Below are positions 8,770 to 28,973 of a DNA stretch of 32,000 nt, in pieces. Each line of letters begins with the position of its first letter. Position 1 is the stretch's first letter. Source of the DNA: Candidatus Harpocratesius repetitus (GTDB lineage Archaea > Asgardarchaeota > Lokiarchaeia > Sigyniarchaeales > Promethearchaeaceae); NCBI GenBank assembly GCA_021498095.1, contig JAIZWK010000001.1, positions 90,001 to 122,000 on the forward strand, read 5' to 3'. The translations under genes and the position numbers were made by a program. Under the pieces are notes generated by a model. That model was not told the origin of the DNA, ran no database searches, and was given only the letters and a program-made list of their open reading frames with translations.

Positions 8770-8846
8770 TATTAAAAATATCATTTAATTTATCAGAAAT
8801 AAGGTTTTTTTCTATAATACAAAAGCTCATCAGAAAGAAGTTTAAC

Positions 8847-10022
8847 ATGACATCTATCGAAATCTTTGAGGATTCTTCTGAAAAGGAATCAATTTCAAAT
8901 GTTTTAGTACCTAATTCAGCAATGGACGATATTCGAATTATTGATATTTTTTCTGGAGTAGGAGGTCTTTCATATGGATTCCACTCACAAGGTTATAATA
9001 TTCTCACAGCAGTTGATTTTGACCCTCATGCACTTAAAACCTATTCCAGACACTTTCATACAAAATATGAGACTATATGTGAAGATTTAACTAAAAAATC
9101 AATTTTAAGTCTAGCTAATCAGCAAAAAATTCCTGTTAAATCAATTGATCTCCTAATCGGAGGACCTCCATGTCAAGGATTTTCATTTGCAAACCGCCAT
9201 GGGGAAAATTCAAAAATAGAAAAAAGAAATTTAATCCATAGTTTTAAGTCGAATCTGAAAAATTTAAAACCCACCTTTTTCCTCATGGAAAATGTTGCTG
9301 GAATTAAATTAGGCAGCAATCAAATATATTTAAAAAAATTTTTAGAAGAGATTAAAAATTTAGGTTACGAATTTCGAGAATTTGAAATTAACTGTCTGCA
9401 TTTCGGTATTCCGCAGATACGAAACAGGTATTTACTGCTTGGATCATTAAAATCTGAAGGACGAGATTTGGAAAAAATAGTCTTACCCAAAGGAGATAGA
9501 AAAATTACCTTAAAGAAAGCAATTTCTGATCTTCCTAAAGTTCAAAATGGAAATAAAACGGATATTCTTCCTTATCAAATACAAAATTACTCCGAACTTT
9601 CCAATTATCAGAAAATGATGAGAAAATATAATATCCAAACTCACGTATCGAATAACACAGCTACACGTAATCAACCCTATGTTATTGAACGGTTTACTCA
9701 AATTAAACCTGGTGGAAATTGGCGCAGTATTCGACATATGCTGCATAATTATCGTAATGTGGATAACTGCCACAGTTCAATTTACCGTCGTTTACAATGG
9801 AACCAACCTTCAATTACGATTACAAATTTTCGGAAGAATATGATTATTCATCCTTCAGAAAATCGACTTCTTACCGTTCGTGAGGCTGCCCGGATTCAAT
9901 CCTTTCCGGATCATTTCGTTTTTCTCGGTCCGAAAAGTGTGCAGGAACAGCATGTAGCCAATGCCGTGCCGCCCCTAGTGTCGGAATTTTTTGCAAAAGA
10001 AATTAAAAAACATTGGTACTAA
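8847..10022 (+). CDS. dcm: DNA (cytosine-5) methyltransferase
   Basis: Motif I IDIFSGVGG, motif IV GGPPCQGFS, motif VI MENV, motif VIII PQIRNR, motif IX LTVREAARIQSFPD, motif X NAVPP. Alternative start ATG 8922. Confidence 0.97.
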   Translation: MTSIEIFEDSSEKESISNVLVPNSAMDDIRIIDIFSGVGGLSYGFHSQGYNILTAVDFDPHALKTYSRHFHTKYETICEDLTKKSILSLANQQKIPVKSIDLLIGGPPCQGFSFANRHGENSKIEKRNLIHSFKSNLKNLKPTFFLMENVAGIKLGSNQIYLKKFLEEIKNLGYEFREFEINCLHFGIPQIRNRYLLLGSLKSEGRDLEKIVLPKGDRKITLKKAISDLPKVQNGNKTDILPYQIQNYSELSNYQKMMRKYNIQTHVSNNTATRNQPYVIERFTQIKPGGNWRSIRHMLHNYRNVDNCHSSIYRRLQWNQPSITITNFRKNMIIHPSENRLLTVREAARIQSFPDHFVFLGPKSVQEQHVANAVPPLVSEFFAKEIKKHWY

Positions 10023-10035
10023 CCATCTTTGACCT

Positions 10036-10722
10036 TTATTTCCTAACCTTATTACTTGAACATTCTTCCTTATATTCACTGCATTCATCCTTTAATATGC
10101 AAGAAAAACATTTTGGATTTTTCTGAACACAGACCATTGAGCCAAAATCGATTAAAGCATAATTATAGATATCCCAATTATCATCTGGAAGTAATTCATC
10201 AGCAAATTTCCAGAAAAGAGGATCATTACGCGGGCGTTCCTTTGAAGAAACAAAATGAAAAAAGCGGGAAATAACTCGAATAACATTTACATCGACCAAA
10301 GAAATCCTTTCACCTCTGGCAAAACAACGAAATGCAGAGAGAGTATAGTTACCAACACCAGGCCAACCCAAAATTTCCATTGGTTTAATTGTCTCAAAAG
10401 AAAATTTAGAAGCCTTCATTTTTTTTTGAATTTCAAGTAGATAATCAATCCGTTTTATTAAGCCAAGATTTTTTAAGAGTAATTCGAAATCTTCAGATGT
10501 CGCAGACTTAAATGCATCTTCCGTTGGAAATTTTGAAATAAATTTGGGATAAACAGCAGCGACTTGGGAAGATTTTGTTCGCTGTAAAAGAAATTCTGCT
10601 ATAAAAACACGATATGAATTTCGATCGCTTCTCCAGGAAAATTGACGGAGATTTAAAGATGCCCACTCCATGATTTTTCGAGTGAAAAAGTTCCGAATAT
10701 ATGGATCTTCCCACGAATGCAT
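10036..10722 (-). CDS. mig: HhH-GPD [4Fe-4S] mismatch glycosylase, Mig (T:G thymine-DNA glycosylase) type
   Basis: AEFLLQRT, HhH WPGVGNYT, catalytic VDVNVIRV, Fe-S motif C-x6-C-x2-C-x5-C (CVQKNPKCFSCILKDEC). Lacks the MutY C-terminal domain; has QRTKS and NYA where MutY has QQTQV and NQA. Converges on dcm with a 13 bp gap. Confidence 0.8.
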   Translation of the reverse strand: MHSWEDPYIRNFFTRKIMEWASLNLRQFSWRSDRNSYRVFIAEFLLQRTKSSQVAAVYPKFISKFPTEDAFKSATSEDFELLLKNLGLIKRIDYLLEIQKKMKASKFSFETIKPMEILGWPGVGNYTLSAFRCFARGERISLVDVNVIRVISRFFHFVSSKERPRNDPLFWKFADELLPDDNWDIYNYALIDFGSMVCVQKNPKCFSCILKDECSEYKEECSSNKVRK

Positions 10723-10983: not shown

Positions 10984-12456
10984 TTAAGAATTATTAGCAG
11001 TAAGGACATGGACTAATTTATAAATTTCATCTGTGTGATAATTAGCATCTCTTAGAATTTTATGAATTCCACCTTCCTGACGCAGACTCTGTAAAAATTG
11101 TTCAACATTGTCAAAATTTAACCCGGTTACACTGAGGTGAAAATCTTCAATTATTTTTTCCTCAGGAACACCTAAAAGAAGATAAATTATGCAAATTATT
11201 AAGCCGGTTCTATCCGTTCCTGCTACACAATGAAGCAAAATACCTTTATCCCCTGATGTTTGGATTAGGCGTAACACTTTAATCAATTGTTCAGTATTTT
11301 GTCGAACACTGGTTATGTAGTTGTTTTGAAGCATAATTGGTATATGATGATATTCAATTGGATATTGCTCATTTGCAATAATAATTTTATCATAAGGACT
11401 GTTTAAAATTTCTTGGTCATTTCGCAAATCGATAATCATTTGAATATTATGTTCTTTGAGGAACTTTATTACTTCTAACGGTTTATACTTGGTTAAAGTA
11501 CTGCTACGAAATAGTTTTTCACATTTAATTTTTGGTTCCTGTAAGCTTTCCCTACCAAAGTCCCGGAACTTATAAAATGGAGGATATTTTGCTTTAATTT
11601 GTTCTTGGAACTCTTTAATAGATTTTAGATTTAAGGAAGTAGGTATAGAAGTATTTTTTAGTAAATTAAGAAAAGCGCAGAACATATAACCAATTTTTTC
11701 ACGCATTTCCAAAGGATCGATAGTACTGCTTACTTGTTGTAACACTCGAACGTATTCCTGCTCTTTAGGGCTATGAACTAATACTTTGTTGGTTAAATTT
11801 CTCATTGCATATAAATGTGTTTTCCCACCAGAATCTAAATAAAACAACGTGGCAATTTTATAAAAACAGAGATTATGTTGTAGATAGGCTCGATAAAGAT
11901 CGCCTCGATTAAAGAACGGAAAAAAACTTTCGTAATAGTTTAGAAATTTGCGCGCTTCGAGGTCGAACTTGGCTTTACGGTCAAAAGGTGGTTCAGCTGC
12001 AAGATGTTTTTTTAAATATGGTAATAACTTACCATCTTTATCCAAGCATACTACATTTTTTGGATCTTTTATCCGAGTTTCTAGAAAAAATAGGGAGAAT
12101 TGATCATTCAAATTTATCTTATCAATAGAATTAATCAAATGAAGTTCTACTTTAGTAAAGTTGATTGGAAGATACAAAATCCATAATGATTCTTTAAGAT
12201 TATGGGTTCCAGTTTCATAAGGAAGATAATTAACAAATGAAAGGGGACCAAAGATCTCTTCAAAGTTATTTACAGGATTTTTTGAAAATTCAAACCATAA
12301 TGAAGAGCCATTTCCAAATAAGTATAGATCAATATCTGAATAAAGATCTAATTCATCACGAGCCGCAGATCCCAATACAGCCATTTCACGAACATATTCT
12401 TGTAATTGAAAATATTTCTGAATTTTTGAAATTGTATCCTTAATAATATACGACAT
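10984..12456 (-). CDS. Fusion: Pol-beta-type nucleotidyltransferase (ANT(6)/Lnu-like) plus tyrosine/lipid phosphatase (PtpB/IphP, Y_phosphatase3 type)
   Basis: N-terminal LGSAARDELDLYSDIDL (GS...DxD); C-terminal FRDFG, LFRSS, IIDLRN and P-loop HCVAGTDRTG (CX5R). Confidence 0.85.
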   Translation of the reverse strand: MSYIIKDTISKIQKYFQLQEYVREMAVLGSAARDELDLYSDIDLYLFGNGSSLWFEFSKNPVNNFEEIFGPLSFVNYLPYETGTHNLKESLWILYLPINFTKVELHLINSIDKINLNDQFSLFFLETRIKDPKNVVCLDKDGKLLPYLKKHLAAEPPFDRKAKFDLEARKFLNYYESFFPFFNRGDLYRAYLQHNLCFYKIATLFYLDSGGKTHLYAMRNLTNKVLVHSPKEQEYVRVLQQVSSTIDPLEMREKIGYMFCAFLNLLKNTSIPTSLNLKSIKEFQEQIKAKYPPFYKFRDFGRESLQEPKIKCEKLFRSSTLTKYKPLEVIKFLKEHNIQMIIDLRNDQEILNSPYDKIIIANEQYPIEYHHIPIMLQNNYITSVRQNTEQLIKVLRLIQTSGDKGILLHCVAGTDRTGLIICIIYLLLGVPEEKIIEDFHLSVTGLNFDNVEQFLQSLRQEGGIHKILRDANYHTDEIYKLVHVLTANNS

Positions 12457-12487
12457 AATTATTTTCTCGAATTTTATTAATAATTTT

Positions 12488-13147
12488 TCAAGTAGAATAG
12501 TTTTTTATTAACTTATGTTCAAACTGTATGATTTCTTTCCATATTTCTTCAAAAAAACGGTTTTTAAGATTAGATAAGAGCTCATCAGGAGTAAGTATCC
12601 TTGAATTATCAAAATTTAAAATCAAGTGAGGAATAGAATCAATCATCCAAAATTGATCTATTTTATCTTGTTTAAGCTCGTAGTCATTACGAATAATCAG
12701 TTTTTCAACAGGGATAGAAAAGGGATATGGAATTTTATCAAAATGTGAAGTGTTATGAATTTTTTTCAGACACTGCTCAGGAGGAGAAGTAATATAGATA
12801 ATCACATAGGGGTTTTTAGAAAATTTAAGTGCATATCGGACTGCATGTTTATGGATTCCTACCCCGCTAAATTCTAAGACGCAATGTCCATCATTCTGAA
12901 TATATCTGAGAAATTGTGAATATGCATCATATTCTCCTGCTACTGTTCCATCAGCAACTGCTATCCGAATAGTGTCAATAGAATAAATCGGATAGCGAGA
13001 AAATTGTGAAATCCACTTTGCAATTAAAGATTTTCCTGCACCAATATTACCAATAAGAAAAATTTTGAAATTATTTTTTATCCTTATCTGATGTTTCATT
13101 TCATCCATTTTATGACGAGTTCTCCTTGCTTTTTTTCTTTTTATCAA
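12488..13147 (-). CDS. Small P-loop kinase (NMP/shikimate-kinase-like fold)
   Basis: LIGNIGAGKS Walker A near the N-terminus, SIDTIR, VLEFSG, IIYITSPPEQCLKKI. Start TTG 13147 or ATG 13108. Confidence 0.78.
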   Translation of the reverse strand: MIKRKKARRTRHKMDEMKHQIRIKNNFKIFLIGNIGAGKSLIAKWISQFSRYPIYSIDTIRIAVADGTVAGEYDAYSQFLRYIQNDGHCVLEFSGVGIHKHAVRYALKFSKNPYVIIYITSPPEQCLKKIHNTSHFDKIPYPFSIPVEKLIIRNDYELKQDKIDQFWMIDSIPHLILNFDNSRILTPDELLSNLKNRFFEEIWKEIIQFEHKLIKNYST

Positions 13148-13222
13148 TCAAAAAATTTTGCATCTTTTCATGTTTTAGTCAATAGAATCAAAGAGTTAAG
13201 AGAAATGAGATTGTTAAAATAA

Positions 13223-15136
13223 TTAAGACCGTCGAGCAGCTAAAACAGTCATTAATCCTAATCTCTCAGATGATTCAAGGCTAAAACCGCACTTATTGAA
13301 AATAAATTCGTAATCTTTAATAGTTCGCTCTTTTCCTCCTGTGATTGCAATTAAATTTAACGTAAGAAATACTCCTATATCAAATTGGGGATTTTCGGGG
13401 GGAACTAACTCAATAATATAGATTTTTCCATCTTCTTTCAAAATAGTATGACAATTGCTAAGAAGTTTAATTACTCTTTGATCATCCCAATCATGAAGTA
13501 CACGACTTAAAAAGATGGAATCCACAAGTCTTTGCGGGTTCTCTTTCAAAATGGACGAATATTTCAAAATTTCTTTTAAATTATTAAAAAAATCACCAAC
13601 AATTAATTCAACTCTATTTTGTTGAAGTAATTGAGTTAGATAACTTTTAGCAGAATTTACCGCTTCTTTTAAATCGATTAAAATTCCTCGTGTATTTGGA
13701 TATTTAAAAAGCAATTTTTTTAGAAGTACACCTTTTCCACCCCCAATATCCAAGATTATTGGATGTTCTTGATGAATTTCTCTTGTTTTGTTATTAAGAG
13801 ATTGATTTGTCCAATCAGATTTATCAAAAATGGAAAAAGGAAATTCTTCAACTATACGCGCGTAATCCCTCTCAGCATAGTGAGCCATTGCAGAATGATA
13901 AAGCATTGCTTTTTCAGGACGATTATTGATCCATTTAAAAAATTCTTCATTGTAATATAATTCGAATGCTGATCTACATTGCTTATTGGAATTCTTATTT
14001 TTCTCGTAAAATTTCTTTGAGTTTACGTAATGTTTCTGTAAAAATGGCGCCAAATAATTCCAAGCATGATAATGTTCTTCACCGAAAACTAAACAAGAAG
14101 CATATAAAGAATTGGGATGATCTTTTGTAAGCAATTCACCTTTTTTAGTTAGTGTATAATATTCTTTAGATTTCTGAAGCAGCTTCATAACATACAGAGC
14201 GTGAAGGATCTTTTCGCAGTAATTTACTTCAATATGACATGTTTCAGAGATTTGATCTAGTTTTTTTGGACCATTCGATAAATATTCAAAAATACCCAAT
14301 TTTACCGCAGCTACTACGGTTTGCTGTTTCCAATAAGATGTAAATAATGTCTGTAATTTCTGGTGGTTATGATCAGGGTCAGTTTCGGCATTAAATATAG
14401 TATTTACCCAATTTCCCGATTCATCAATTATACCTGATGTACCCTCAAATTTGACAACGCGAGCATAACCATTGTAAAAGGGTTCCACAAGTTGATATCG
14501 CTCTGAATATATCGGTTCTCCTTTCATATCAATATGACACCAACCCCGTTTATCTCGAGCCCGTGCAAATCCCTTATGAAAATTATCGAGATCATAATAT
14601 TTTGACGTATATAAGGGAATACCTTCCTGGTTGATATGAATTGCAAACCCATTGTCTAATCGAGCCACTGCTATCCCATATTTAAAATCACCCACATATA
14701 CAAAAGTTGTTGTATAGATTTTTTTTCCTTCAAGATCGATATGAAAAAATCGATTATTCATATCTCTCACAGCACAAAATTTCTCTTGAAAGTTGCCAAC
14801 CCATCGATAATTGTCCAGATATACCCGATCACCTTGAAGATCGATATGAAACCAATTCCTATTCTTCACAACAGCAGCATAATCATAATAATATCCAAAT
14901 GACCGATCGAAGCGATGTGGATATAATTCTTCACCAGTACTTGTAATATGAAAAGCACCTGTATTATCAACAACCGCAGCTACACCAGGTGGATGAAAAC
15001 TTAGTACATTTTGAAATCTAGCAGAGTATGCTGGAGTTCCGTCAGATTTTAAATGGTGAGTCATTGTTGGGGCAATCGTAAAAGATTGATAATCATTATT
15101 TTTCAGCTGTTTACTTTTAAGAAGATTAGACTTCAT
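13223..15136 (-). CDS. WG-repeat domain fused to class I O-methyltransferase (Methyltransf_2 with dimerisation HTH)
   Basis: About six repeats of type FHIDxxGxxxY...F..G.A in the first ~245 aa; AAVKLGIFEYL dimerisation domain; LDIGGGKG, GDFF, LSRVLHDW, GGKERT motifs. Confidence 0.88.
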   Translation of the reverse strand: MKSNLLKSKQLKNNDYQSFTIAPTMTHHLKSDGTPAYSARFQNVLSFHPPGVAAVVDNTGAFHITSTGEELYPHRFDRSFGYYYDYAAVVKNRNWFHIDLQGDRVYLDNYRWVGNFQEKFCAVRDMNNRFFHIDLEGKKIYTTTFVYVGDFKYGIAVARLDNGFAIHINQEGIPLYTSKYYDLDNFHKGFARARDKRGWCHIDMKGEPIYSERYQLVEPFYNGYARVVKFEGTSGIIDESGNWVNTIFNAETDPDHNHQKLQTLFTSYWKQQTVVAAVKLGIFEYLSNGPKKLDQISETCHIEVNYCEKILHALYVMKLLQKSKEYYTLTKKGELLTKDHPNSLYASCLVFGEEHYHAWNYLAPFLQKHYVNSKKFYEKNKNSNKQCRSAFELYYNEEFFKWINNRPEKAMLYHSAMAHYAERDYARIVEEFPFSIFDKSDWTNQSLNNKTREIHQEHPIILDIGGGKGVLLKKLLFKYPNTRGILIDLKEAVNSAKSYLTQLLQQNRVELIVGDFFNNLKEILKYSSILKENPQRLVDSIFLSRVLHDWDDQRVIKLLSNCHTILKEDGKIYIIELVPPENPQFDIGVFLTLNLIAITGGKERTIKDYEFIFNKCGFSLESSERLGLMTVLAARRS

Positions 15137-17624
15137 ATTTATTCGCTTCCATTATTCTTTCTTTTTTAGAACTTCTCAATTGCGCTGTTATTTTATTTTG
15201 TGGTGGTCTTCGTAATAAACACGATTGACAAACAGAATGACTTTTATAATTAAGCTGTAATTTTTTCAAAGAATCATCCAACCAAAGATTCATAAAATCG
15301 TTATTACCCACGCTCCCCCACGAACCTAACGTCTTTCGTAGATCATCAGGAGCGCAACATACATCAAATTTCCCATCCCATGCAATCCACGCCTCAAATC
15401 CCAAAAAAGGACATTCCCAATCTGAAGAAATGCTTGTTTTCTCTGAATTATCAAAAAATAGTATGTTATCTAATATAATTTGATTTGGTTTAGCAGGTCC
15501 ATCAACTAAATATGGATTTGATTCTCTTTTTGTGAGAGAATCTAATAGGTGATATGATTCTTTCACAATTTCATTCCAACGTTTTTTGCTGTTAGAATTT
15601 CTCAACAGAGATTGTTGCTCCATTTCAGGATAGAGCACCCAAAGATGATGACCTTTAATTCTGTCAATTCCTAATTTGTTGGCAAATTTAATCATTTGCG
15701 GCAGCTCATGATAATTCTTTTCCATAAAGGTCATTTGAAGTGTTATTCGACAATAATGTCCTGTTTTATGAAAAATATGATTTCTTTCCCTTACAAATGT
15801 ATGTAAATCATCCATTCTTTTTTGGAATGGAGAACCAACCATTATTTCTTCTTGGATTTTAGGGATTAAACTATTCCATGAAATTTTCACATCAGAAGCA
15901 ACAGGAATAATCAACTTTGCCCATTCTGATGCTGATTTCCTTGGAAATGTTCCGTTAGTTGTTAAATTTAATGCAATCCCAGTTTCTCTACATAATGAAA
16001 TTATTCGTTCAAAATCAGAATATAATAAAGGTTCTCCCATAGTTGAAGGAATTATTTCTTTTAATCCAAATGGCCAAGCATTCCATACGACTTGTTCAAT
16101 TATCTCGAATGGCATTCTCCGAGGTTTATATTTCTGTGCTTTTACACGATGGCTATTAGGATTTAATTTACTGAATCCTTCACACATAATACAAGAAAGA
16201 TTGCATTCGTCTGGGTTTGTATCAAATGTAATTCTCCATGGACCAATCCCTTGCAATGGTGTAGATAAAGTGTTTTGAAGTCTTTTTTCTATATTTAAAT
16301 ATAGTTGGTGAATAAAGGTGCCATCTGATTCAATAGAGTGAACTTTTGGATGATTTTTTCCAAATTTATCTAATAAATAGGGATTTTGAACAAGATAATA
16401 CATCTTTTCTGCAAGATCAACAGCATCTCCTTGAGAAAAAAGAAGACCATTTACTTGATCTTTTATTAGTTCTGCCATCCCTCCCTTATTTGAAGTAATC
16501 ACAGGAATTTCTGCTTGAAAGGCTTCGTGAATTACTAAAGGAGAATTTTCATACCAAATCGAAGGTACAACCAAAACATCAAACTCTTCAAAAATCTGAG
16601 CCACTTGATTGTTTGGATACTTTCCTATGAACTGAATACTAGAATTACATGACGCTTTAGCTTTCAAAGTTTGGTATAATTTCTTGAATTTATAATGTGG
16701 GGAAGCATTAATCCGTAAACTTACTTTCACATTGGTGCTAGAAGATTGCCCATTGATTAATTGATGTTTTTGGAAAAGCATTTTTTGTAAAATTTCGAAT
16801 GCATCTAATAACACATCCAATCCTTTAGATGGAATAGCAGTCCCGCAATACCCAAAAACAATTTCATGTTTTTCTTTCCGAATTAGACTTGGTACACGAG
16901 AATATTTTCCAAAATATTCTAAATTAAAACCATAATCACGATAAGTGCATTTTCTTGGATCAAGCCCTTCTTTGATGAATCGATTGCGGAGGAATTTAGA
17001 AGGAGCAATGAACATATCAACCAATGAGAATATTTGTCTTATTTTTGCTTTCCTATTCTCCAATAAAGTTTCACAATTCGATTCATCACGAAGATTATTC
17101 CCAATAGTATATTTCTGCTGTATACAACGAATGCACCGTTTGATATCTGTGGGCTCACAGATTTTTAGATCTCTCCCTAAAAATTGTCCTCTCGGACAGA
17201 GAAGCCAATAATCATGAAGAGTAAACACTATTTTGGCTCCAAAAGATTTAGTAATGGAAACTAAGTTTAACGAAAGATGATTTAAGTGTCCAAAATAGAC
17301 ATATTGCGGCTTAAATTCCTGCATGACCTTTTGAAAGAGTTTATCGATTAATGGTTGTTCATGCAAATGGATAAAATCCAATTCGTCTGGTTCTTGCACT
17401 ATGTAATGAATAATTCCTTCAATTTCTTGAGATTTTATATGATCTGGAATTTTTTGACTAACACGATAGAAAATCCGTGTATTATAGTATTTTCTTAAAG
17501 ATTTAGCGAGATTATAAGTGTAAACTTCAGAACCTGCTTCGTACTCAGGGGGAAATCCGTGATGAATGATTAACAATTTAGGCAGCGAATAAGAAGAATT
17601 ACCTGGTTTACTCATTTTTTTCAC
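15126..17624 (-). CDS. Fusion: GT4 (GT-B) glycosyltransferase plus radical SAM/SPASM enzyme
   Basis: N-half: HHGFPPEYEAGSEVYT, TLHDYWLLCPRG, KGLDVLLDAF, PSIWYENSPLVIHEA; C-half: CNLSCIMC, MGEPLLY, C-terminal CPFL...DGKFDVCC...CQSC. Confidence 0.9.
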   Translation of the reverse strand: MKKMSKPGNSSYSLPKLLIIHHGFPPEYEAGSEVYTYNLAKSLRKYYNTRIFYRVSQKIPDHIKSQEIEGIIHYIVQEPDELDFIHLHEQPLIDKLFQKVMQEFKPQYVYFGHLNHLSLNLVSITKSFGAKIVFTLHDYWLLCPRGQFLGRDLKICEPTDIKRCIRCIQQKYTIGNNLRDESNCETLLENRKAKIRQIFSLVDMFIAPSKFLRNRFIKEGLDPRKCTYRDYGFNLEYFGKYSRVPSLIRKEKHEIVFGYCGTAIPSKGLDVLLDAFEILQKMLFQKHQLINGQSSSTNVKVSLRINASPHYKFKKLYQTLKAKASCNSSIQFIGKYPNNQVAQIFEEFDVLVVPSIWYENSPLVIHEAFQAEIPVITSNKGGMAELIKDQVNGLLFSQGDAVDLAEKMYYLVQNPYLLDKFGKNHPKVHSIESDGTFIHQLYLNIEKRLQNTLSTPLQGIGPWRITFDTNPDECNLSCIMCEGFSKLNPNSHRVKAQKYKPRRMPFEIIEQVVWNAWPFGLKEIIPSTMGEPLLYSDFERIISLCRETGIALNLTTNGTFPRKSASEWAKLIIPVASDVKISWNSLIPKIQEEIMVGSPFQKRMDDLHTFVRERNHIFHKTGHYCRITLQMTFMEKNYHELPQMIKFANKLGIDRIKGHHLWVLYPEMEQQSLLRNSNSKKRWNEIVKESYHLLDSLTKRESNPYLVDGPAKPNQIILDNILFFDNSEKTSISSDWECPFLGFEAWIAWDGKFDVCCAPDDLRKTLGSWGSVGNNDFMNLWLDDSLKKLQLNYKSHSVCQSCLLRRPPQNKITAQLRSSKKERIMEANKYEV

Positions 17625-18213
17625 ATTCTTTGTCTTTTTAATTTCAGAATTTTTTCACTTTTTTATTATTATTTTCCTGTCAATTTTTTGGTTCGTTTTT
17701 TTGAAAAAATTTATTCAATTTCAGATAAATCTTTTTCTTTAGACATATTTAATTCTTTCTTTGTGAGTAAATATGTGGTATGATGGTTGAATTATTCCGA
17801 TAGACAATAAATTCCCATTATTTTTTCCAAAAGGAAAAAAAATAGAAAAGAGAAAGATAAGAAAGCATTTTATGAGAAATTGTAGAGTGAGACAATTTCA
17901 GATAAAACTTGATTATTTTCTCTTTCCTTGATATCGGAAATTATTGGGGTTCAATTGGTTGGAATGATTATTTCCAGCCGCTCGATAGGCAGAATTGTTT
18001 GGGTTATATACATTTGATCGATTCGCATTCGATCGATTGGAAGTAGATGATTTTTTACTCATGTTTTAACACCTGTAGTTGTTCAACTACAATTATACTA
18101 ATGATTTTTATTCATTCAAATATAATTGATAATTATCCAGATCAAATATGATCCATTTTTTATTTATAAATTAAATCATATTTTTCTAATAATTTCGAAA
18201 AACGGTATCGCAA

Positions 18214-21200
18214 ATGAATAAAAAAAGGGAAAATTCAACTTCAGAACTATATAAATCAGCAATAATCAGCTCATTAAAACAAGGAGATAAAAAACTTGCA
18301 GATATTGAGCAAGATGTACGATCTACATTAATTGGATTCAGTCGAAATACACTAAGAAAATATAGAGATATATTGATCAATGAAGATAGAATTGAACAAA
18401 TAGGAACCCAAGCTCACCCTACTTATCATTTAAAATGTAATAACTCGAATTTTCTTATTGAATCAGAAAGTCTTTTTCCCTCTAATGAAACTTTACTAAA
18501 TCAACTCTTTTTACTTAATGATTTTCTTCAAAATCCAATTTATCGAAATTATTTATCAGAATTACGCAATCCTCACACTGGTTCAATATTGAAATCGATA
18601 ATTCTGAGATATACACATATTTTTAATACAATTAAAAAGCAGAATCTTTTAGATTTCCTTCAATTTCTATTGTTCATTCTTTTTATGCATGAAAAACATA
18701 TAAATATTTCAGAATATGAGAAAGAAGAACAAGAATTATCCTTTTTAAAGAATATTCCGAAAGAAAAAATTTTTTTTTTTGAAGAAATAATGTCAAAACA
18801 AAAATTATTATATATTTTTTTTAGTCATTGTAATAGACTTACAACTACTAATCTTTCTGTCAATAAATTTTACTTATTAACTAAGGGAGAAAATTATGCG
18901 TATTTTGATAAAAGTTTAGAAAATTTAGTAACTTCGATACTTCGATCTCTTATTCTTGTGGAAGATCCAATTTCACTAAATTTATTTGAAGATATATCCT
19001 TAATAGAACTGCAGAAATGGATGTTAAAAAGTTTAAAGGCTCAAAATAACGCAGAATATTTTAATAACCAGATAGAGCGAATTGCATCATATTCTCCTTT
19101 CCCATTTTTCATTTTCTTAAAAGAAAAACTATTTCAAAAGTTTCAATTTATTCTTTATAACGAAATTCCTTTATATCGAGATTGGATATTTGTTAATCTT
19201 GAAATTTTATCTTCAAATATAAAAAAAATCATTTTTCGTGAACCAAACCCTCATTTTTATATAAATTTCATTGATCAAGCAATTTCTCGAATCATTCATA
19301 ATGCAACTTCAGTCAAAAAGTGCATGAATTGTTTACATTCAGCAAAAAATGATATGGAAAAAGAAATTTTTAAAAGTCTGTTAAATCTTAATTCAAAAGA
19401 AGAAATAAAAGAGATCTTTAAAAATAAACTAAGCGGTCGTATTGATTTTAGGTTAAAAAATGCAAAAAAGGTGCTGTTTTATCTTTATTTGAAAACAAAA
19501 ATCAGATTATTAGAGCCTAATCGAGAAAAGAACCCTTTAAACCAAAATAATGCAGATGAAGACGAACTTCTGCTACAATGGAATGTTTTCTTCCAAAAGG
19601 TCAAAATGGTTGCGCAGAAGCAGGAAAAACTTAGCTTATTTGAAGGAACTTCATTAAGACATCTTATCATGCAGAGTATCCGTATTTTTGAAAAATTATT
19701 GGAAAAAATTCAAATAATTCACCCCATATCACCCAATTCCTTAAAAAGGAACAATCAATCTGATTACAGACAATTCTTGCTTTCATGTCATAAAGGCCAA
19801 ATTAGATCTGGCAATAACGATGAAACATACCTTATAAAACTCTTTTTACTTCTTCGTGGAACAGCATTTGGAATTGAGGGATTTAGAAATGAAATCAATA
19901 ATACAAAAAATACAACACTTCTTTTACTCTCCTTTGAAGCACTATACTTATCTGATAATCTTGATGATTTTAAACTTCTTAAGAATTTGATGAAAAAATT
20001 TTTCATGTCAAATGAGAAAGAGATACCTATTCGAAGGAAAATGATGTTGTTAACAGGAATAATTCATTTTGCGATCGTTCCATTAAAAGGAAAAAATACT
20101 GTTGATCAAAAAAGAGCCAATCTTTTCATTCAAGCATTTGATTTTTTCTGTCAGTACTTAGAAAAACTCAAATCTACCTCTGGAACCAATATGTCTTTCA
20201 ATTTTAAGTGGTTTTTCAACCTACTAGGGATCTATTATTATTTTCAAAATGAAAAAAGATCAGCTTTAGTTGCTGATTTACTAGGATTGTGTTTTTCATT
20301 TGAAAACCGAGCTCTTTTTCCTGAAACCCTCCTTTTCCAATATAATTCCTCATTTCATTGTATTTCATATGGTGAAACTCTTATAGAATTTCCTCCGTAT
20401 TTCATGATTCCCCATTCATCGATGGCAAAAGTACTACAATTAATGTTGATCGAAAATGTAAGCATCTCCCTAAATTCAATAATGAAAGTCCTCAGAGATT
20501 CTAACTTTTCTGAAAAACTAGGATTTGTTAAATTTTTTTGTAATAATTCGATGCAAGCAGAAGATATGAAGAAGAATGAACAAGATTTGAAGAGAATGAA
20601 CCAGTTATTAGATGAAAATTTAAAGTTAAGAAAATTCATTCTATTTCTATATCAATCAATCTATTTATTACATACTATTTTTATTGATGTTCCATTTAAC
20701 CAGATTTTTACCTTTGAAACAAATGTTTCAGAACCACAACACATTCAAATTCAAAAACTACTCCAGACTGTAGATAATTTTAGTAGGTATCATTCTGGAT
20801 TTAATACTCAATATCCTGCTTGGATTATTGCTATGCTCGCTTTAGTGAATAAGGATTTCGAATTATATCAACATTGGAGTCGAAAAATTATCCAAGCATA
20901 TCCATATTGCATTCCATTTTACAGAATAAACCTTCAATATGCTTTTAAGATACAAAATGCTGCAATGCAGGAAGAAACAATCTCCAAAATCTGGCAGGTA
21001 ATTGCGTCGAATTCTTTTGATATCTATCCAACCTATAATCTTGGTAAATACTGCAATCACTGGCACCTCTATCAATTCCCAGACATTTTAGATCTTCTTC
21101 TTAAGTGCCATCCTAAACACAGAAGGGATGAATATTTGCTTATTCTCGATTATTTTCTGATGCGAATACCGTTAACTAAATCTCAAAAAATAGATATTTT

Positions 21201-21429
21201 AGAAAAAGTGCACGCTTATCGTCCAGAAACATTTTTTCAATATGAATCATTAACAGAAGAAATTGAAAAATTCCGAAATAAATACAATATCCACGATTAT
21301 TTCAAATTTTCTCCCGATGATAAACAACCAGGATACTCAAAGAAATATGGATATTATATTCCAGAACCAAGGCCATCGAGATTAAAATCTTACCAATATG
21401 TAAATTTGCCGGATAAAATTGTTATCTAA
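18214..21429 (+). CDS. Large (1071 aa) helical protein with N-terminal winged-HTH-like segment; possible regulator
   Basis: Long uninterrupted ORF; residues ~15-70 (SSLKQGDKKLADIEQDV...FSRNTLRKYRDILINEDRIEQIG) fit a wHTH pattern; remainder helix-rich with no recognisable catalytic motif. Confidence 0.6.
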   Translation: MNKKRENSTSELYKSAIISSLKQGDKKLADIEQDVRSTLIGFSRNTLRKYRDILINEDRIEQIGTQAHPTYHLKCNNSNFLIESESLFPSNETLLNQLFLLNDFLQNPIYRNYLSELRNPHTGSILKSIILRYTHIFNTIKKQNLLDFLQFLLFILFMHEKHINISEYEKEEQELSFLKNIPKEKIFFFEEIMSKQKLLYIFFSHCNRLTTTNLSVNKFYLLTKGENYAYFDKSLENLVTSILRSLILVEDPISLNLFEDISLIELQKWMLKSLKAQNNAEYFNNQIERIASYSPFPFFIFLKEKLFQKFQFILYNEIPLYRDWIFVNLEILSSNIKKIIFREPNPHFYINFIDQAISRIIHNATSVKKCMNCLHSAKNDMEKEIFKSLLNLNSKEEIKEIFKNKLSGRIDFRLKNAKKVLFYLYLKTKIRLLEPNREKNPLNQNNADEDELLLQWNVFFQKVKMVAQKQEKLSLFEGTSLRHLIMQSIRIFEKLLEKIQIIHPISPNSLKRNNQSDYRQFLLSCHKGQIRSGNNDETYLIKLFLLLRGTAFGIEGFRNEINNTKNTTLLLLSFEALYLSDNLDDFKLLKNLMKKFFMSNEKEIPIRRKMMLLTGIIHFAIVPLKGKNTVDQKRANLFIQAFDFFCQYLEKLKSTSGTNMSFNFKWFFNLLGIYYYFQNEKRSALVADLLGLCFSFENRALFPETLLFQYNSSFHCISYGETLIEFPPYFMIPHSSMAKVLQLMLIENVSISLNSIMKVLRDSNFSEKLGFVKFFCNNSMQAEDMKKNEQDLKRMNQLLDENLKLRKFILFLYQSIYLLHTIFIDVPFNQIFTFETNVSEPQHIQIQKLLQTVDNFSRYHSGFNTQYPAWIIAMLALVNKDFELYQHWSRKIIQAYPYCIPFYRINLQYAFKIQNAAMQEETISKIWQVIASNSFDIYPTYNLGKYCNHWHLYQFPDILDLLLKCHPKHRRDEYLLILDYFLMRIPLTKSQKIDILEKVHAYRPETFFQYESLTEEIEKFRNKYNIHDYFKFSPDDKQPGYSKKYGYYIPEPRPSRLKSYQYVNLPDKIVI

Positions 21430-21711
21430 TCAAATAACAATTAAAAAGCATGTCTCTGAATCGCAAATTACTCTAATTATTACATACTTTGGAACTTCAT
21501 AAATTAACTCCTATTTTCTTACATGACATTTATAACTCTAAATTTGTTCAAAAACGTAGTAGTTTTTTCAGTATCATTTATATCATTGAAAAACCCATAT
21601 TTATATTTTCAACATATTCTATTAATGGGAATTTTGGAAGAAAATTTTAATTAAAATTGAATTTCTATTGAATACTCGAACAAAACGGAAATTTTCCTAA
21701 TTTTTCCTCTT

Positions 21712-22134
21712 TTATTTTAAAACTCTTTTTTGTTTTTGAATTTTCTCTTGAGTTTTTTTATTATAATATTTTAAATATTTCTGCTCCCAGCGGTTTGATT
21801 TTTCACTTGCATGTTGAACAGAGAATCCCTGAATCCAAATGTAGCATAAAATTGTCAAAAAATCAACTAATTCCCATTTGTACGCTTGTCTACTCACTGG
21901 AAGGTCGATCGCTTTTCGTTCCCATTTCACAAGTTTTTTGAAGAACGAAATCTTATTGAAAATTGAATAATGTGAACAGAATTGGAGAATTTGATTTACA
22001 GATTGAGTAGTTTTGTGCACATAGATACTCAAGTACCCTTTTCTTTTATTCTCGCTGATGTAAATAATAGATTGTAAAAGAAATAAAATATTTTTATTTT
22101 TTGTCGAATCTTTGAGAATTGTTTTATTTTCCAA
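21712..22134 (-). CDS. Hypothetical protein, possibly a transposase N-terminal remnant
   Basis: TTG-started 140-aa ORF; YKWELVDFLTILCYIWIQGFSVQHASE loosely recalls IS4/ISH3-type N-termini. No DDE core or terminal repeats seen. Confidence 0.25.
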   Translation of the reverse strand: MENKTILKDSTKNKNILFLLQSIIYISENKRKGYLSIYVHKTTQSVNQILQFCSHYSIFNKISFFKKLVKWERKAIDLPVSRQAYKWELVDFLTILCYIWIQGFSVQHASEKSNRWEQKYLKYYNKKTQEKIQKQKRVLK

Positions 22135-22151
22135 ACGGTGAAAAATTGACT

Positions 22152-23102
22152 ATGAAATGGCTTGATTTCAAAATTACACAGCGGTGCAATAATCATTGTC
22201 GCTATTGCAATGTAAAACATGACAAACCCACTAGTAAAGATATGCTTTCAGTAAATGTAATCAAAAAAACGATTTATGAAGCTATTAACCTAGAGTTTAC
22301 TCATTTTGCTTTTTTAGGCGGAGAACCCACTTTACGACATGATTATCAAGAACTTTTTACTCCATTTCGAGATCCAACTGCCGAAAAAGTAGAAGAAATC
22401 ATGATTATATCTAATATTTTACAATTTAATGAAAATATGGTTGAAAATTTATTTTGTTCAAACACCAAAAGAGCAACTTTCACTGCTTCAATAGATAATT
22501 TGGTAAAACCCAATTTTAAGAATCAAAACCCTCAAAAAGTCCTTAGAAACTTGAAAAAAATTCAAAAAATTGCTTACCGATATGAACATCGGGGAAATCG
22601 CGAGATCCATATCCATTCAGTGATTTCGCGCGAAAATTTTTCAAATATCTTGAATCATGTTGAATATTTTGATAATCTCGGATATAAAGTATCAATGGCA
22701 ATTGTTGAACCCTATATTCTTACAGATTCTCCCCGAAAATATAATGAATTTTCTAAATCAGATTTTGAAAAAATTATTGAGCAATTAGACCAACTAGAAA
22801 GAACAAATAAATTGAATTGGGCAAATCAAGTTCTTCGAGATTATATTTCTGAATATATCTTGAATTCACAATCTCGACTTAAAAACTGTACCGCAGGTAA
22901 AAAACATGTGATAATCGAATTTGATGGGAATGTTTATCCTTGTTTAACAGAATCCTATAGACGGGGCTTAACGTTCGGAAATATTCAAGCAGAAGATTTT
23001 AGCCAGATCTATGAAAAAATGCAGAATTTTCTATGTCAATCAGAGTTTCATCAAACATGCTGGGATCATTACCTTTGGTCCCGATTAGCAAGGGAAAAAT
23101 AA
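22152..23102 (+). CDS. Radical SAM protein with SPASM/Twitch domain
   Basis: CNNHCRYC, FLGGEPTL, CTAGKKHVIIEFDGNVYPC, GNI. ATG 22152 preferred over 22119. Confidence 0.92.
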   Translation: MKWLDFKITQRCNNHCRYCNVKHDKPTSKDMLSVNVIKKTIYEAINLEFTHFAFLGGEPTLRHDYQELFTPFRDPTAEKVEEIMIISNILQFNENMVENLFCSNTKRATFTASIDNLVKPNFKNQNPQKVLRNLKKIQKIAYRYEHRGNREIHIHSVISRENFSNILNHVEYFDNLGYKVSMAIVEPYILTDSPRKYNEFSKSDFEKIIEQLDQLERTNKLNWANQVLRDYISEYILNSQSRLKNCTAGKKHVIIEFDGNVYPCLTESYRRGLTFGNIQAEDFSQIYEKMQNFLCQSEFHQTCWDHYLWSRLAREK

Positions 23103-23119
23103 AAAGCAGAGGGAAGGTT

Positions 23120-24082
23120 TTGAACAGTAAATTACTAAATAATCAAAATCCATTCAAAATAAAACGTCTGATTCTGGAATTAAGCCGCAATTGCAATTTA
23201 AATTGTTCAATGTGCGGTTTTGGAGGAAATCCGATTCGAGAAGATTGGTTTATGAATTTATCAATTGTAGAAAAAATCTTGTTGGACCCCTATATAAGAT
23301 CAAATTTGCAGGAAATACGTCTTAACGGAAGAGGAGAGAGTACAATTCACCCCGAATTCATATCTTTACTTAAATTTATTCGAAATCTTTATCCAAATGT
23401 TCAGTTAACCATGTTTACAAACCTTATGTTCTTGGATGAAAAGATTATGAAGGAGCTTTTAAAAAGAAATGTACTTCTGTTTATCTCCATGGATTCAAAT
23501 CAGAAAAGCCAATTTGAGAAAATTCGTAAAAAAGCATCTTATGAATTACTTAAAAGACGCTTAAAATTGGTGAAAATCGGTTTTATTGTGTTTACTCTTC
23601 AAGAAACAAATTGGAATGAACTACTTGATATTGGAAGGGTGGCAAAAGAACACGGATTGGGACTAATTATAAACAACGTTCATCTTTTAAATAGCAACGC
23701 CCGAGAAAGGTTTCGTGATATATTGAATTCAAATTGGAATGAAATCTTAGCCGATTTGCTGAAAATTCGACTTAGTTTCCCATCTGATCGAATATTAATA
23801 CCTGATCAAATATTAGGATATAAACTTCCAATGGAAATTGCGACGACAATAAGCTGCGGGAGCTTAAACTTTTGTCCAAACGCTTATTCAGAAATAATGT
23901 TGGGATATGATGGTAAAATCTATCCATGTAATATGTTTCACCCTTATATATTAGGTGATATAAACACTGAAAGAATTGAAGATGTGATAAAATCAACCAA
24001 ACGTCAAGATTTTTTACTAAATCACAAAACCACCGCATATTGTAAAGATTGTGCTTATTTGTTTCCAAAAGGTGATTTTTAA
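23120..24082 (+). CDS. Radical SAM protein with SPASM/Twitch domain
   Basis: CNLNCSMC, GRGESTIHP, CPNAY...YDGKIYPCN, ILGDI, CKDC. TTG 23120 with upstream GAGGGAAGG preferred over 23033, avoiding a long overlap. Confidence 0.9.
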   Translation: MNSKLLNNQNPFKIKRLILELSRNCNLNCSMCGFGGNPIREDWFMNLSIVEKILLDPYIRSNLQEIRLNGRGESTIHPEFISLLKFIRNLYPNVQLTMFTNLMFLDEKIMKELLKRNVLLFISMDSNQKSQFEKIRKKASYELLKRRLKLVKIGFIVFTLQETNWNELLDIGRVAKEHGLGLIINNVHLLNSNARERFRDILNSNWNEILADLLKIRLSFPSDRILIPDQILGYKLPMEIATTISCGSLNFCPNAYSEIMLGYDGKIYPCNMFHPYILGDINTERIEDVIKSTKRQDFLLNHKTTAYCKDCAYLFPKGDF

Positions 24083-24086
24083 AAGA

Positions 24087-25343
24087 ATGACTTCCACAAC
24101 TAGAATGCATTTTTCTACCATACGCTCAATAAAATCGCAAAATCTTGTAAAATGGCTCAAAAGTATTAATTTAGTAAATTTAGAAAATATAATTCTTTAT
24201 TATATGATGCAAAGAAAAATTTTACAAGTCCTGAAATTGTATGCTCCAGAATATGTTCAGTTTTGGCTCAAATACAGAAAAACCCTCTTCCAACAGCTGT
24301 TTTTTACCGTAAAATTTTGGACCCGTAAATACAAGCGTATTCTACGAAAAAACTCTCAAAGATCCTTTAAAATTGCATATTTAAATCCAAAAATCTTAAA
24401 AAATTCTCAATTATTTTCTGGACTAACAAATTTAAAAATTATTGAATGTGTTTCTTTTTGGAAAGGATTTATTGAGCAATACGGGAGTTTTCCTCCAAAA
24501 TTACAGGATAAACCTCTTCCCCAGTTACGCAACGCACTTTCGAATAATAAAGGTGCATCTATTGCGGTGATCATTCCGATTGGAAACAATACCACCGAAT
24601 ATTTAACCATTTTACAACAATCGTTATCCGTTTTATATGAAAACTCTCTCATTAATCAAGTTTATTGCATCGTTGATGGCAGAATTCTTCCTGAAAAATT
24701 CGAAAATTGGATAAAAAATCAAGAAAAATTCTCTCTATTATATTATCGCACAAAAGTCGGTCCCGCTACTATTCGGAATCACGGTCTTAAATTGTGTAAT
24801 CAAGGTAATTTTTCTGATGTTCTGCTCCTCGATGCCGATATACTTTTAACAAAAAACTCGCTTCATAACCTTCTATCGGCTTATTTAAACACCTCATATA
24901 GCATCGTGTTTCCTAAAATCATCTCACAAAACAATTCGATATTGGATTATTACTACGATATCAATGGCATTTTAAACGGTCGAATTCTGGCAAATCATAA
25001 ATCAGATAATGAACTCCTCACTAGTTTACTTTTATACGGCACAACAAGTGTTGTGTTAATTAATCAAGTGATTTTCCGCAATAATATCTCGTTTGATGAA
25101 AATTTTAAAATTGCTGCAGGAGAAGATATAGATTTTTGTTTAAACCTTATACATTCCGGGCACTCGTTAATTGGTTTTGAAAATGTATTCATTCAGCATT
25201 ATTACGGAAATAATGATATATCGAATGCAGGAATCCAAACCTTCAAAAGCCGGTTTGAGCGGTATGGAAGAGGAGATGCGATATTGCTGCAAAAACATCC
25301 CTATTTTTATGCTTGGTTAAATAAAACCCAACCAAGAATATAA
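24087..25343 (+). CDS. GT2 (GT-A) glycosyltransferase with N-terminal extension
   Basis: AVIIP, GPATIRNHG, LLLDADI (DxD), FDENFKIAAGEDIDF, RFERYGRG. ATG 24087 lies 4 bp after the previous stop. Confidence 0.88.
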   Translation: MTSTTRMHFSTIRSIKSQNLVKWLKSINLVNLENIILYYMMQRKILQVLKLYAPEYVQFWLKYRKTLFQQLFFTVKFWTRKYKRILRKNSQRSFKIAYLNPKILKNSQLFSGLTNLKIIECVSFWKGFIEQYGSFPPKLQDKPLPQLRNALSNNKGASIAVIIPIGNNTTEYLTILQQSLSVLYENSLINQVYCIVDGRILPEKFENWIKNQEKFSLLYYRTKVGPATIRNHGLKLCNQGNFSDVLLLDADILLTKNSLHNLLSAYLNTSYSIVFPKIISQNNSILDYYYDINGILNGRILANHKSDNELLTSLLLYGTTSVVLINQVIFRNNISFDENFKIAAGEDIDFCLNLIHSGHSLIGFENVFIQHYYGNNDISNAGIQTFKSRFERYGRGDAILLQKHPYFYAWLNKTQPRI

Positions 25344-27400: not shown

Positions 27401-27529
27401 TTCTTTATATTATAGAAATAATATATTTATATTTTTATATATTCTATAATAATATATGTCTTCAAAAACTACGGTGGCAATTGATAAAGCGTTACGAAAA
27501 AAATTGAAAAAAATTGCTCTTTTCTTAGA
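27401..27529 (+). repeat. Long direct repeat, copy 1 (matches 30238-30366)
   Basis: Offset 2837 bp; 2 mismatches in 129 bp (27404/30241 and 27412/30249), identical from 27413 to 27529. Confidence 0.95.
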
Positions 27530-27551
27530 ATTGAAAAAAATTGCTTCTTAA
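27456..27551 (+). pseudogene. Truncated 31-codon copy of the RHH antitoxin gene
   Basis: MSSKTTVAIDKALRKKLKKIALFL is identical to the start of 30293..30625, then ELKKIAS-stop. Confidence 0.88.
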
Positions 27552-28969: not shown

Positions 28970-28973
28970 ATCT

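Follow-up and report, generated by a model that had tools for sequence, protein, structure and literature searches.

Two adjoining enzyme cassettes, one related to the Undecim Cluster core of Wolbachia phage WO, in the Asgard archaeon Candidatus Harpocratesius repetitus

Do the glycosyltransferases (GT) and radical S-adenosylmethionine (SAM) enzymes encoded on both strands of a genomic island in ‘Candidatus Harpocratesius repetitus’ serve one pathway, or do two unrelated gene sets lie side by side? The question concerns positions 10984-25343 of a 32,000-nucleotide stretch of DNA, called the window below, which corresponds to bases 90001-122000 of a 4.36-Mb single-contig genome (ca. 30% G+C); the genus ‘Ca. 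Harpocratesius’ is placed in the Asgard phylum Promethearchaeota. The original prediction, made from the letters alone, described one bidirectional tailoring cluster with two arms diverging around a giant winged helix-turn-helix (wHTH) protein, and proposed a novel glycoside pathway with self-protection. Our reading, to which we give a probability of roughly 0.55, is that the locus consists of two unrelated, self-contained and horizontally mobile enzyme cassettes that adjoin by chance and do not form one bidirectional pathway. The genes of the two cassettes are as follows (NTase, nucleotidyltransferase):

10984-18062, minus strand: cassette 1 (left arm), in gene order small NQLNP protein, GT4-radical SAM/SPASM fusion, WG-repeat O-methyltransferase, P-loop kinase and NTase-Cys-phosphatase
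17913-18062, minus strand: open reading frame (ORF) of the 49-aa small protein, first gene of the left arm; motif hidden Markov model (HMM), orthologue in the related locus L001
15126-17624, minus strand: GT4-radical SAM/SPASM fusion; Pfam
13223-15136, minus strand: WG repeats, dimerisation domain and family-2 O-methyltransferase (together WG-OMT); Pfam, O-methyltransferase E 3.5e-30
12488-13147, minus strand: small P-loop kinase-like protein; Walker A GNIGAGKS, sub-cut-off matches to dNK and SKI
10984-12456, minus strand: Pol-beta NTase, helical linker and Y_phosphatase3; Pfam, Y_phosphatase3 E 7.9e-27
22119-25343, plus strand: cassette 2 (right arm), a radical SAM-radical SAM-GT2 triad
22119-23102, plus strand: radical SAM/SPASM protein A; Pfam, probable start 22152
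23033-24082, plus strand: radical SAM/SPASM protein B; Pfam
24051-25343, plus strand: GT2 glycosyltransferase; Pfam, conserved part from ca. 24207

The separability of the two arms is a matter of observation. No right-arm homologue was found in any of 84 other distinct loci carrying the fusion gene, and no left-arm homologue in any of 51 other triad loci. In L001, the closest relative, the left arm is present along with the small ORF and the giant gene, with unrelated genes in the right arm’s place, and three further loci (L093, L094 and L095) carry the triad alone, without the left arm. Because the arms share none of these 135 other loci, and L001 and L093-L095 keep one arm each, we regard them as two cassettes and not as parts of the single bidirectional cluster that had been proposed. 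Of the two findings that the original prediction had named as adverse to itself, arms that never meet elsewhere were observed, and arms that map to known S-layer or lipid glycosylation loci were not, since both correspond to mobile cassettes instead.

The enzyme domains it had named (three radical SAM/SPASM domains, GT4, GT2, an O-methyltransferase and an NTase-phosphatase) were confirmed by Pfam and by motif checks: CX3CX2C is present in all three radical SAM domains, CX5R in the phosphatase, GS...DxD in the NTase and DxD in the GT2. No convincing transmembrane segment was found in any protein of either cassette, and all of them look soluble and cytoplasmic; the view of these genes as cytoplasmic sugar- and radical SAM-tailoring functions accompanied by a kinase and a phosphatase is supported. 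Neither a scaffold synthase nor an exporter is among the Pfam and NCBIfam matches, as anticipated. The tight coupling claimed for the left arm holds for the fusion and OMT genes, which overlap by 11 nt, whereas the OMT and kinase genes are spaced by 75 nt, and the kinase and NTase genes by 31 nt.

The left arm is, by its sequence, an archaeal variant of the two-gene core (UC3 and UC4) of the Undecim Cluster of Wolbachia phage WO. This cluster (WD0611-WD0621) is highly expressed and has been transferred to Rickettsia plasmids, Cardinium and Phycorickettsia (PMC9203015, PMC4701759), and the expression of the cassette in Wolbachia is constitutive (PMC4701759). WD0613 (UC3) and WD0614 (UC4) carry the same domains as the archaeal pair, with no function assigned (PMC9203015; PMC4701759). 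In a tblastn search of phage records, the fusion was 38.4% identical to WO of wMel (wMel_KL) across 96% of the query (E 2e-165), and the WG-OMT of the window matched the 531-aa UC4 of WO over residues 35-334 (42% identity, E 1e-74). The fusion protein (P0010) of L004, the Phycorickettsia record cited in PMC9203015, is 41% identical to that of the window. The WO region runs in the order GlmU-like gene, epimerase, GT/radical SAM gene, 531-aa, 329-aa and 555-aa proteins, two L-allo-threonine aldolases, transporter and UDP-glucose dehydrogenase; its 555-aa protein is homologous to the ABC transporter of L004.

The two systems have in common the fusion (38-41% identity) and an adjoining WG/KWG-repeat OMT (ca. 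42%), alike in order and strand, and both are mobile. The Undecim Cluster further comprises a GlmU-like gene, an epimerase, PhyH, an ABC/TLC transporter, an aldolase pair and UDP-glucose dehydrogenase, which the window lacks, whereas the window has the P-loop kinase, the NTase fused to a phosphatase of the protein-tyrosine phosphatase (PTP) type, the small NQLNP protein and a divergent 1071-aa gene, all missing from the Undecim Cluster. It also differs in its archaeal host, in the absence of a prophage context and in the position of its fusion protein on a long separate tree branch. In agreement with this, Pfam detected none of the UC1-2 and UC5-11 domains (including the GlpT-type transporter and a methyltransferase) at 10984-25343, and the window holds no homologues of the epimerase, PhyH or the aldolases. 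In Wolbachia (L088:11394-12989) and Phycorickettsia (L004:10298-11986), the methyltransferase half of UC4 is far more diverged than its WG half; the C-terminal match is 27% over 77 residues, Pfam finds only a faint WG match in L004, and the methyltransferase half may be degenerate there.

Free-living bacteria carry the cassette in a different form. In Myxococcota, Pseudomonadota and Nitrospinota it reads (small protein)-epimerase-fusion-WG-OMT-His_Phos_1, and a Bacteroidota form has the NTase-PTP protein. The window resembles these forms in having the core pair, a phosphatase slot and, in first position, the small NQLNP ORF, and its NTase-PTP is homologous over the full length to that of Bacteroidota. 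It departs from them in pairing the small ORF, found elsewhere mostly with His_Phos_1, with NTase-PTP, in an extra separate kinase and in the lack of an epimerase. What is new is the left arm as an archaeal, kinase/NTase-PTP variant of a described cassette.

The anatomy of cassette 1 was compared in 85 distinct loci (84 besides the window), with some adjacency counts taken over 88 loci. WG-OMT follows the fusion directly in 85 of the 88, from at least 10 phyla, and an epimerase of the short-chain dehydrogenase/reductase type lies upstream of the fusion in 49 loci. Where at least 3.5 kb of downstream DNA was available (67 loci), the core is followed by His_Phos_1 in 34, by a PTP-type phosphatase in 10, by the Rickettsiales set of PhyH, aldolases and transporter in 12 and by none of these in 11. 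A phosphatase slot, filled by two non-homologous families, is hence a recurrent feature of the cassette, and the NTase-PTP of the window occupies it.

The last two genes of the left arm are genuine accessories of cassette 1, since full-length NTase-PTP homologues (ca. 24% identity, E to 5e-21) directly follow the fusion gene in 10 Bacteroidota loci, and since a Planctomycetota cassette (L044) encodes an AAA_33 kinase-PTP fusion that matches both the kinase and the phosphatase gene of the window. The NTase-phosphatase has the motifs GS..DID in the NTase and a CVAGTDR loop in the phosphatase. As for the small kinase of the original prediction, 12488-13147 does encode a P-loop protein with an intact Walker A motif, with 68% identity to its orthologue in L001; its dNK and SKI matches are below the Pfam cut-offs, a search of solved-structure sequences gave none below E 0.1, and we infer the name ‘kinase’ from the Walker A motif and these sub-threshold matches.

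The fusion itself has more than 3700 homologues of ca. 780 aa and ca. 40% identity across Rickettsiales, Myxococcota, Bacteroidota, Planctomycetota, Nitrospinota and others; its closest relative belongs to a ‘Ca. Harpocratesius’ sp. (66%), with about 40% identity to the proteins of Rickettsia, Phycorickettsia and Nitrospinae. In Asgard archaea the distribution is patchy, the gene being present in 12 of 250 other genomes and 10 of 63 genera, often as split GT4 and radical SAM genes, and missing from both same-genus genomes that were searched; such a distribution is in keeping with horizontal mobility. Maximum-likelihood analysis of 83 fusion proteins put those of the window, L001 and L003 together on a long branch with full support, separate from every bacterial sequence. 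The split form is seen in L147-L157 (Asgard genomes G043, G077, G089, G175, G184, G249 and others), where the GT4 and radical SAM halves are two adjacent genes; some of these matches hold in-frame TGA, TAG or TAA codons, suggestive of pseudogenes or assembly errors.

The radical SAM half of the fusion has the motif CNLSCIMC, and both CX3CX2C and C-terminal Cys residues are invariant among homologues. Three further Cys residues in the GT4 half (143, 156 and 164), invariant in 11 distant homologues, may form a metal site. No match was obtained when the radical SAM half alone was compared with solved-structure sequences. Its structure model (predicted local distance difference test, pLDDT, 82.6) placed the peptide maturases SuiB and SkfB on top in a Foldseek search of the PDB, together with PqqE and anSME, and the sugar-nucleotide enzymes BlsE and DesII barely behind them (TM-score 0.52-0.60, E 1e-12 to 1e-10). 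These SPASM/twitch enzymes share the fold, the CX3CX2C motif and the C-terminal Cys ligands with the window protein and differ from it in sequence (11-18% identity), in its C-terminal Cys pattern (C738, CC756-757, C799 and C802), which is not the canonical CX2CX5CX3C, and in its fusion to GT4; none of them predicts a substrate class. Because maturases of ribosomally synthesised peptides with post-translational modifications (RiPPs) and sugar-nucleotide enzymes match about equally, the modelled structure would favour neither a peptide nor a sugar as substrate. BtrN, the 2-deoxy-scyllo-inosamine dehydrogenase with a twitch domain to which the original prediction had likened these enzymes, is not among the 50 best PDB matches of the fusion’s radical SAM half, the part of the locus that this comparison covered, and no BtrN family appears among the best 25 NCBIfam matches of each protein.

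The nearest solved sequences of the GT4 profile include sucrose-phosphate synthase (SPS; 6kih, Tll1590) and MshA of C. glutamicum (3c4q/3c48), a likeness at the superfamily level that covers only the C-terminal Rossmann half (E 1e-13 to 1e-14), and those of WG-OMT are small-molecule phenol/N-methyltransferases (6c5b, CalO6, MmcR and PhzM). SPS and MshA glycosylate phosphorylated acceptors ahead of a phosphatase step. Similarly, a phosphatase gene follows in most cassette 1 loci, and the cassette can be compared with SPS and sucrose-phosphate phosphatase or with MshA/MshA2 of the mycothiol pathway, which have no radical SAM or methyltransferase step. Cassette 1 probably runs via a phosphorylated intermediate, because two non-homologous phosphatases share one slot, L044 has a kinase-PTP fusion and the kin of GT4 are SPS and MshA.

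From this we infer the chemical steps that follow, as well as the product and whether it would be a free metabolite. Most likely, each cassette makes or modifies a cytoplasmic sugar-containing product. In cassette 1, the GT4 domain would move a sugar from a nucleoside diphosphate (NDP)-sugar onto a phosphorylated acceptor, perhaps made by the kinase; the fused radical SAM domain would then alter the glycoside by H-atom abstraction, the methyltransferase would cap a hydroxyl and the phosphatase domain would finally strip the phosphate, while the NTase domain may nucleotidylate an intermediate. This order, from kinase to dephosphorylation, is suggested by the phosphatase slot, the relatives of GT4 and the small-molecule type of the OMT. 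In cassette 2, two cooperating radical SAM/SPASM enzymes and GT2 would act on another sugar-containing substrate. Sugar nucleotides may be supplied by neighbouring genes, given the epimerase upstream of cassette 1 and an epimerase/dehydratase (9 loci) or UDP-glucose dehydrogenase (3 loci) beside the triad, the sole recurrent neighbours of the latter.

The right arm, judged by its conservation, is a separate three-gene cassette, radical SAM-radical SAM-GT2, found in about 50 other species. The metagenomic contig L093 has the same three genes in the same order (identities 61% for A, 56% for B and 45% for GT2), and the triad is also carried by a Promethearchaeota contig (L094) and by a Desulfobacterium chromosome (L095), in the latter among a group II intron, an IS91 element and an integrase. 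In a survey of 52 loci from Bacteroidota, Verrucomicrobiota, Methanophagales, Acholeplasmataceae and others, radical SAM B is followed by GT2 in 51, about 47 of 49 loci hold two radical SAM genes, and some 49 of the 52 keep the triad. The two radical SAM proteins appear to act together, since P0252 is a natural fusion of A and B and since the triad is so widely kept. The family of protein A is narrow, with 11 representatives at E<=1e-30 in a set of 1.84 billion proteins; B has 241 homologues (E<=1e-10), spread over Asgard archaea, Bacteroidota and other phyla. GT2, which has a DAD motif and is 378 aa long in its database form, is rare, with 11 proteins at E<=1e-5 in a search of 5.8 billion, and was not found in 40 relatives. 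No conserved small ORF surrounds the triad, the matches obtained being overlapping-frame artefacts.

The pairing of a SPASM radical SAM protein with a GT2 recalls MftC and MftF of mycofactocin biosynthesis, and MftF is the best NCBIfam match of the GT2. However, the scores are far below the cut-offs (MftF TIGR03965, 50.3 bits vs 280; MftC TIGR03962, ca. 32 vs 265), and the right arm has no MftA precursor peptide, MftB or MftD/E. A distant relative of the GT2 (33% identity) occurs in another arrangement (L090:4640-12631), which comprises a 1101-aa family-less protein, the GT2, 112-aa and 548-aa proteins and a 447-aa radical SAM/SPASM protein; this layout recurs in ca. 13 metagenome contigs.

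The conserved ORF at 17913-18062 (minus strand), missed in the first reading of the sequence, lies 289 nt upstream of the fusion gene and is co-directional with it. Its 49 codons specify a small, hydrophilic protein, predicted to be disordered, with two motifs, N-x-N-P-N-N and N-Q-L-N-P-N-N (...NPNNSAY... and ...NQLNPNNFRY...). An AGGTG box precedes the ATG by 8 nt, and a T-rich tract follows the stop codon. This long tract (17830-17880), which parts the small ORF from the fusion gene, may act as an archaeal terminator or attenuator and would then separate high expression of the small gene from that of the enzymes. The Harpocratesius relative L001 has an orthologous small gene at the same position. 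The protein belongs to no Pfam or NCBIfam family, the Atlas gave no usable lead, and our literature search yielded no relevant report of the gene combination or of the NQLNP motif; a conserved NQLNP protein heading the left arm seems to have gone unnoticed previously.

Its linkage to the cassette was observed in both directions. In the forward test, a motif HMM was run against six-frame ORFs of all fetched loci and against the whole genome: it found 19 distinct cassette loci at E<1e-5, all with the small ORF upstream and co-directional (the next best match had E>2), from Asgard archaea, Rickettsiales, Gammaproteobacteria, Betaproteobacteria and Myxococcota, a single match in the 4.36-Mb genome and none in the loci of the right-arm triad. 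The bacterial consensus reads (S)ARDNRANQLNPxHPAYxxSRG. Counted over the 78 loci with enough upstream DNA, the small protein stands before the cassette in 18. In the reverse test, 30 of 80 loci fetched via the small protein alone carry epimerase, fusion, OMT and phosphatase directly downstream in fixed order; the remaining 50, mainly from Dehalococcoidia and Flavobacterium, lack both the cassette and any conserved neighbour, and the cassette was found elsewhere in one of five genomes with such a locus. Association of the two is far above chance and not obligatory. The family also lives outside the cassette, as in Dehalococcoidia chromosomes (L192/L201 and L206/L220) with at least two stand-alone copies of the NQLNP gene and no conserved neighbour. 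The small protein may serve as substrate or as partner, or may be co-regulated; a complex prediction with WG-OMT scored 0.02, which weighs neither for nor against binding.

Several of these observations count against two independent metabolite cassettes. That cassette 1 starts with the small protein agrees no less well with a protein or peptide as substrate than with a metabolite, and the best structural neighbours of the radical SAM domain are the RiPP maturases SuiB and SkfB, if only just above BlsE and DesII. The left arm of the window has no epimerase of its own, 11 of the 67 loci lack a phosphatase and Rickettsiales-type clusters carry PhyH, aldolases and transporters in its place, the kinase assignment rests on the Walker A motif and sub-threshold matches, and no homologue has a known product, substrate or activity. 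Finally, the cassettes do adjoin in this genome, which could still reflect a shared function here.

The first of these points leads to the alternative that cassette 1 is a RiPP-like system for protein or peptide modification, in which the NQLNP protein would be glycosylated by GT4, altered by the radical SAM domain and methylated, with the WG domain recruiting it and the kinase and phosphatase acting on it. We hold this tentatively, as a possibility to be kept in mind and not as the expected outcome. It is consistent with a small ORF that stands upstream and co-directional in 18 of 78 loci, whose hosts range from Asgard archaea to Rickettsiales, Myxococcota and Gammaproteobacteria, with the cassettes downstream in 30 of the 80 loci picked by the small protein, with the single copy in the genome and with the ranking of SuiB and SkfB; moreover, the phosphatase belongs to the protein-tyrosine phosphatase superfamily, and the T-rich tract would permit separate high expression of the small gene. 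However, no such ORF is found nearby in 60 of the 78 cassette loci, including those of Wolbachia/Rickettsia and Bacteroidota, and 50 of the 80 small-protein loci have neither cassette nor conserved neighbour, with the cassette elsewhere in one of five genomes of this kind. RiPP cores vary, whereas this motif shows strong conservation; its Tyr is not invariant, Pfam and NCBIfam reveal no protease, RiPP recognition element (RRE)/PqqD-like domain or exporter, and the methyltransferase is nearest to small-molecule enzymes. Broader still, and in our estimate slightly more doubtful, is the idea that the Undecim-type core in general is not a metabolite pathway but a post-translational modification machine for a widespread disordered NQLNP protein, acting by glycosylation, radical SAM chemistry, methylation and a phosphorylation cycle. 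If true, the Undecim Cluster and its Asgard relatives would represent a new cross-domain class of glycosylated ribosomal peptide/protein systems.

The genes between and around the two cassettes bear on the other alternatives. Between the arms lie:

18214-21429, plus strand: giant gene encoding a family-less protein of 1071 aa; possible N-terminal winged helix
21712-22134, minus strand: 140-aa ORF in the gap from giant to right arm; unlikely to be a gene

The giant gene is divergent from the left arm, as predicted, whereas the right arm does not diverge from it and follows downstream on the same strand after a 690-nt gap. Its protein has no Pfam, NCBIfam or PADLOC match, and the wHTH domain assigned to it originally could not be confirmed: Atlas leads to wHTH families score below 0.9, and the N-terminal model (pLDDT 43.6) was too poor for a structure search, even if its H-H-H-E-E order fits a winged helix. 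The sole homologue found, 46% identical, is encoded in L001, where its gene likewise diverges from the left arm; none was detected in 40 relatives or elsewhere in the genome. Since it occurs only in the window genome and L001, the giant travels with the left arm of this lineage, and one may guess that it regulates cassette 1. A shared family of giant wHTH regulators was considered and dropped, the giant being unlike the ca. 1000-aa neighbours in L090 and L094 by BLAST and hhalign. In L094 the triad is preceded divergently by a 963-aa protein (237-3128, minus strand) with an N-terminal HxlR winged helix (E 2e-6) and followed by a His_Phos_1 phosphatase (6974-7756, plus strand), which mirrors the giant-plus-phosphatase layout of the left arm, the giants themselves not being detectably related. 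The 140-aa ORF has no family match and no homologue in any fetched locus, and it is not conserved in L093.

On both sides of the cassettes, a Pfam scan identified genes for an HD protein, a HerA-type ATPase, a C5 DNA methylase (Dcm) and a HhH-GPD glycosylase (2163-10722) and an N6/N4 methylase cassette (27401-32000). Because these genes surround the cassettes, we describe the region as a variable island rich in defence-type genes, and the predicted location among defence genes is borne out. The conflict role deduced from it draws on that location and gained no further support. In one version, one or both cassettes would make a modified (sugar-)nucleotide, such as a viperin-like chain terminator, or glycosylate molecules of an invader. 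Besides the island, this explanation can draw on genes adjoining cassettes elsewhere (a TIR protein in L003, AbiEi/AbiEii in L004 and a type I methylase in L107), on the weakly dNK-like kinase and the NTase, on viperins among the structural neighbours and on PF20706 ‘GT4-conflict’ (family: PMC8195603), which GT4 reaches with 27.1 bits (cut-off 26). Yet Glycos_transf_1 scores 90 bits on the same domain, and the STAND, AP-GTPase and ternary-system architectures of PMC8195603 are missing; PADLOC yields only a generic pVip similarity of the radical SAM core (E 1e-8 to 1e-11), and the NCBIfam viperin model NF038283 gives 30.2, 41.2 and 26.4 bits for the three radical SAM domains against a cut-off of 180. 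Housekeeping genes surround many of the loci (ribosomal protein genes in the case of the cassette 1 locus L005), the expression in Wolbachia is constitutively high (PMC4701759), and there is no sensor/effector architecture. We therefore find a conflict function improbable. In L003 (3831-7590), a fusion relative of 54% identity has as neighbours the TIR-domain protein and another radical SAM protein, of 727 aa; in L004 it is the Undecim homologue that lies next to AbiEi/AbiEii.

A single pathway, in which both arms would tailor one glycoside, cyclitol or nucleoside and a kinase/phosphatase cycle would protect the host as it does aminoglycoside producers, is hardly probable either. The arms do adjoin here, each joins a glycosyltransferase with SPASM radical SAM enzymes, and His_Phos_1 after the triad in L094 indicates that both cassettes can be tied to a phosphatase; against this, the arms share no locus elsewhere, the kinase is a P-loop protein with no match to aminoglycoside phosphotransferases (APH), synthases for 2-deoxy-scyllo-inosose (2-DOI), inositol or any other scaffold are lacking, as is an exporter, and BtrN remains outside the 50 best structural matches. 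An aminoglycoside cluster of Rickettsia buchneri (PMC8770908) was rejected as a match, its gene set (KanB, BtrR, IstM) being different. Surface, S-layer or lipid glycosylation is very improbable: enzymes of the GT4 and GT2 families are often builders of envelope glycans, weak NCBIfam matches point to exopolysaccharide and lipopolysaccharide glycosyltransferases, and an exopolysaccharide was speculated upon for WD0613 (PMC9203015; PMC4701759), but transmembrane segments are absent, as are a flippase, an oligosaccharyltransferase and any polyprenyl-phosphate enzyme, the partners kept across loci are genes for radical SAM proteins, methyltransferases and phosphatases and not for glycan assembly, and carriers of the cassette include wall-less Acholeplasmataceae as well as Rickettsiales.

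Of the cargo modules of Wolbachia phage WO, the Undecim Cluster ranks among the best conserved and the most strongly expressed; it is also found on Rickettsia plasmids, and what it makes is a question of interest in symbiosis. With the left arm described here, its two-gene core appears as a cross-domain mobile cassette that reaches Asgard archaea, and the radical SAM-radical SAM-GT2 triad as a second conserved orphan cassette. Among the carriers of the former are culturable bacteria (Polyangium, Myxococcus, Azospira, Ramlibacter and Ectothiorhodospira), and the small protein, which heads the operon in about a quarter of the loci, makes the question of what the Undecim core does directly testable.

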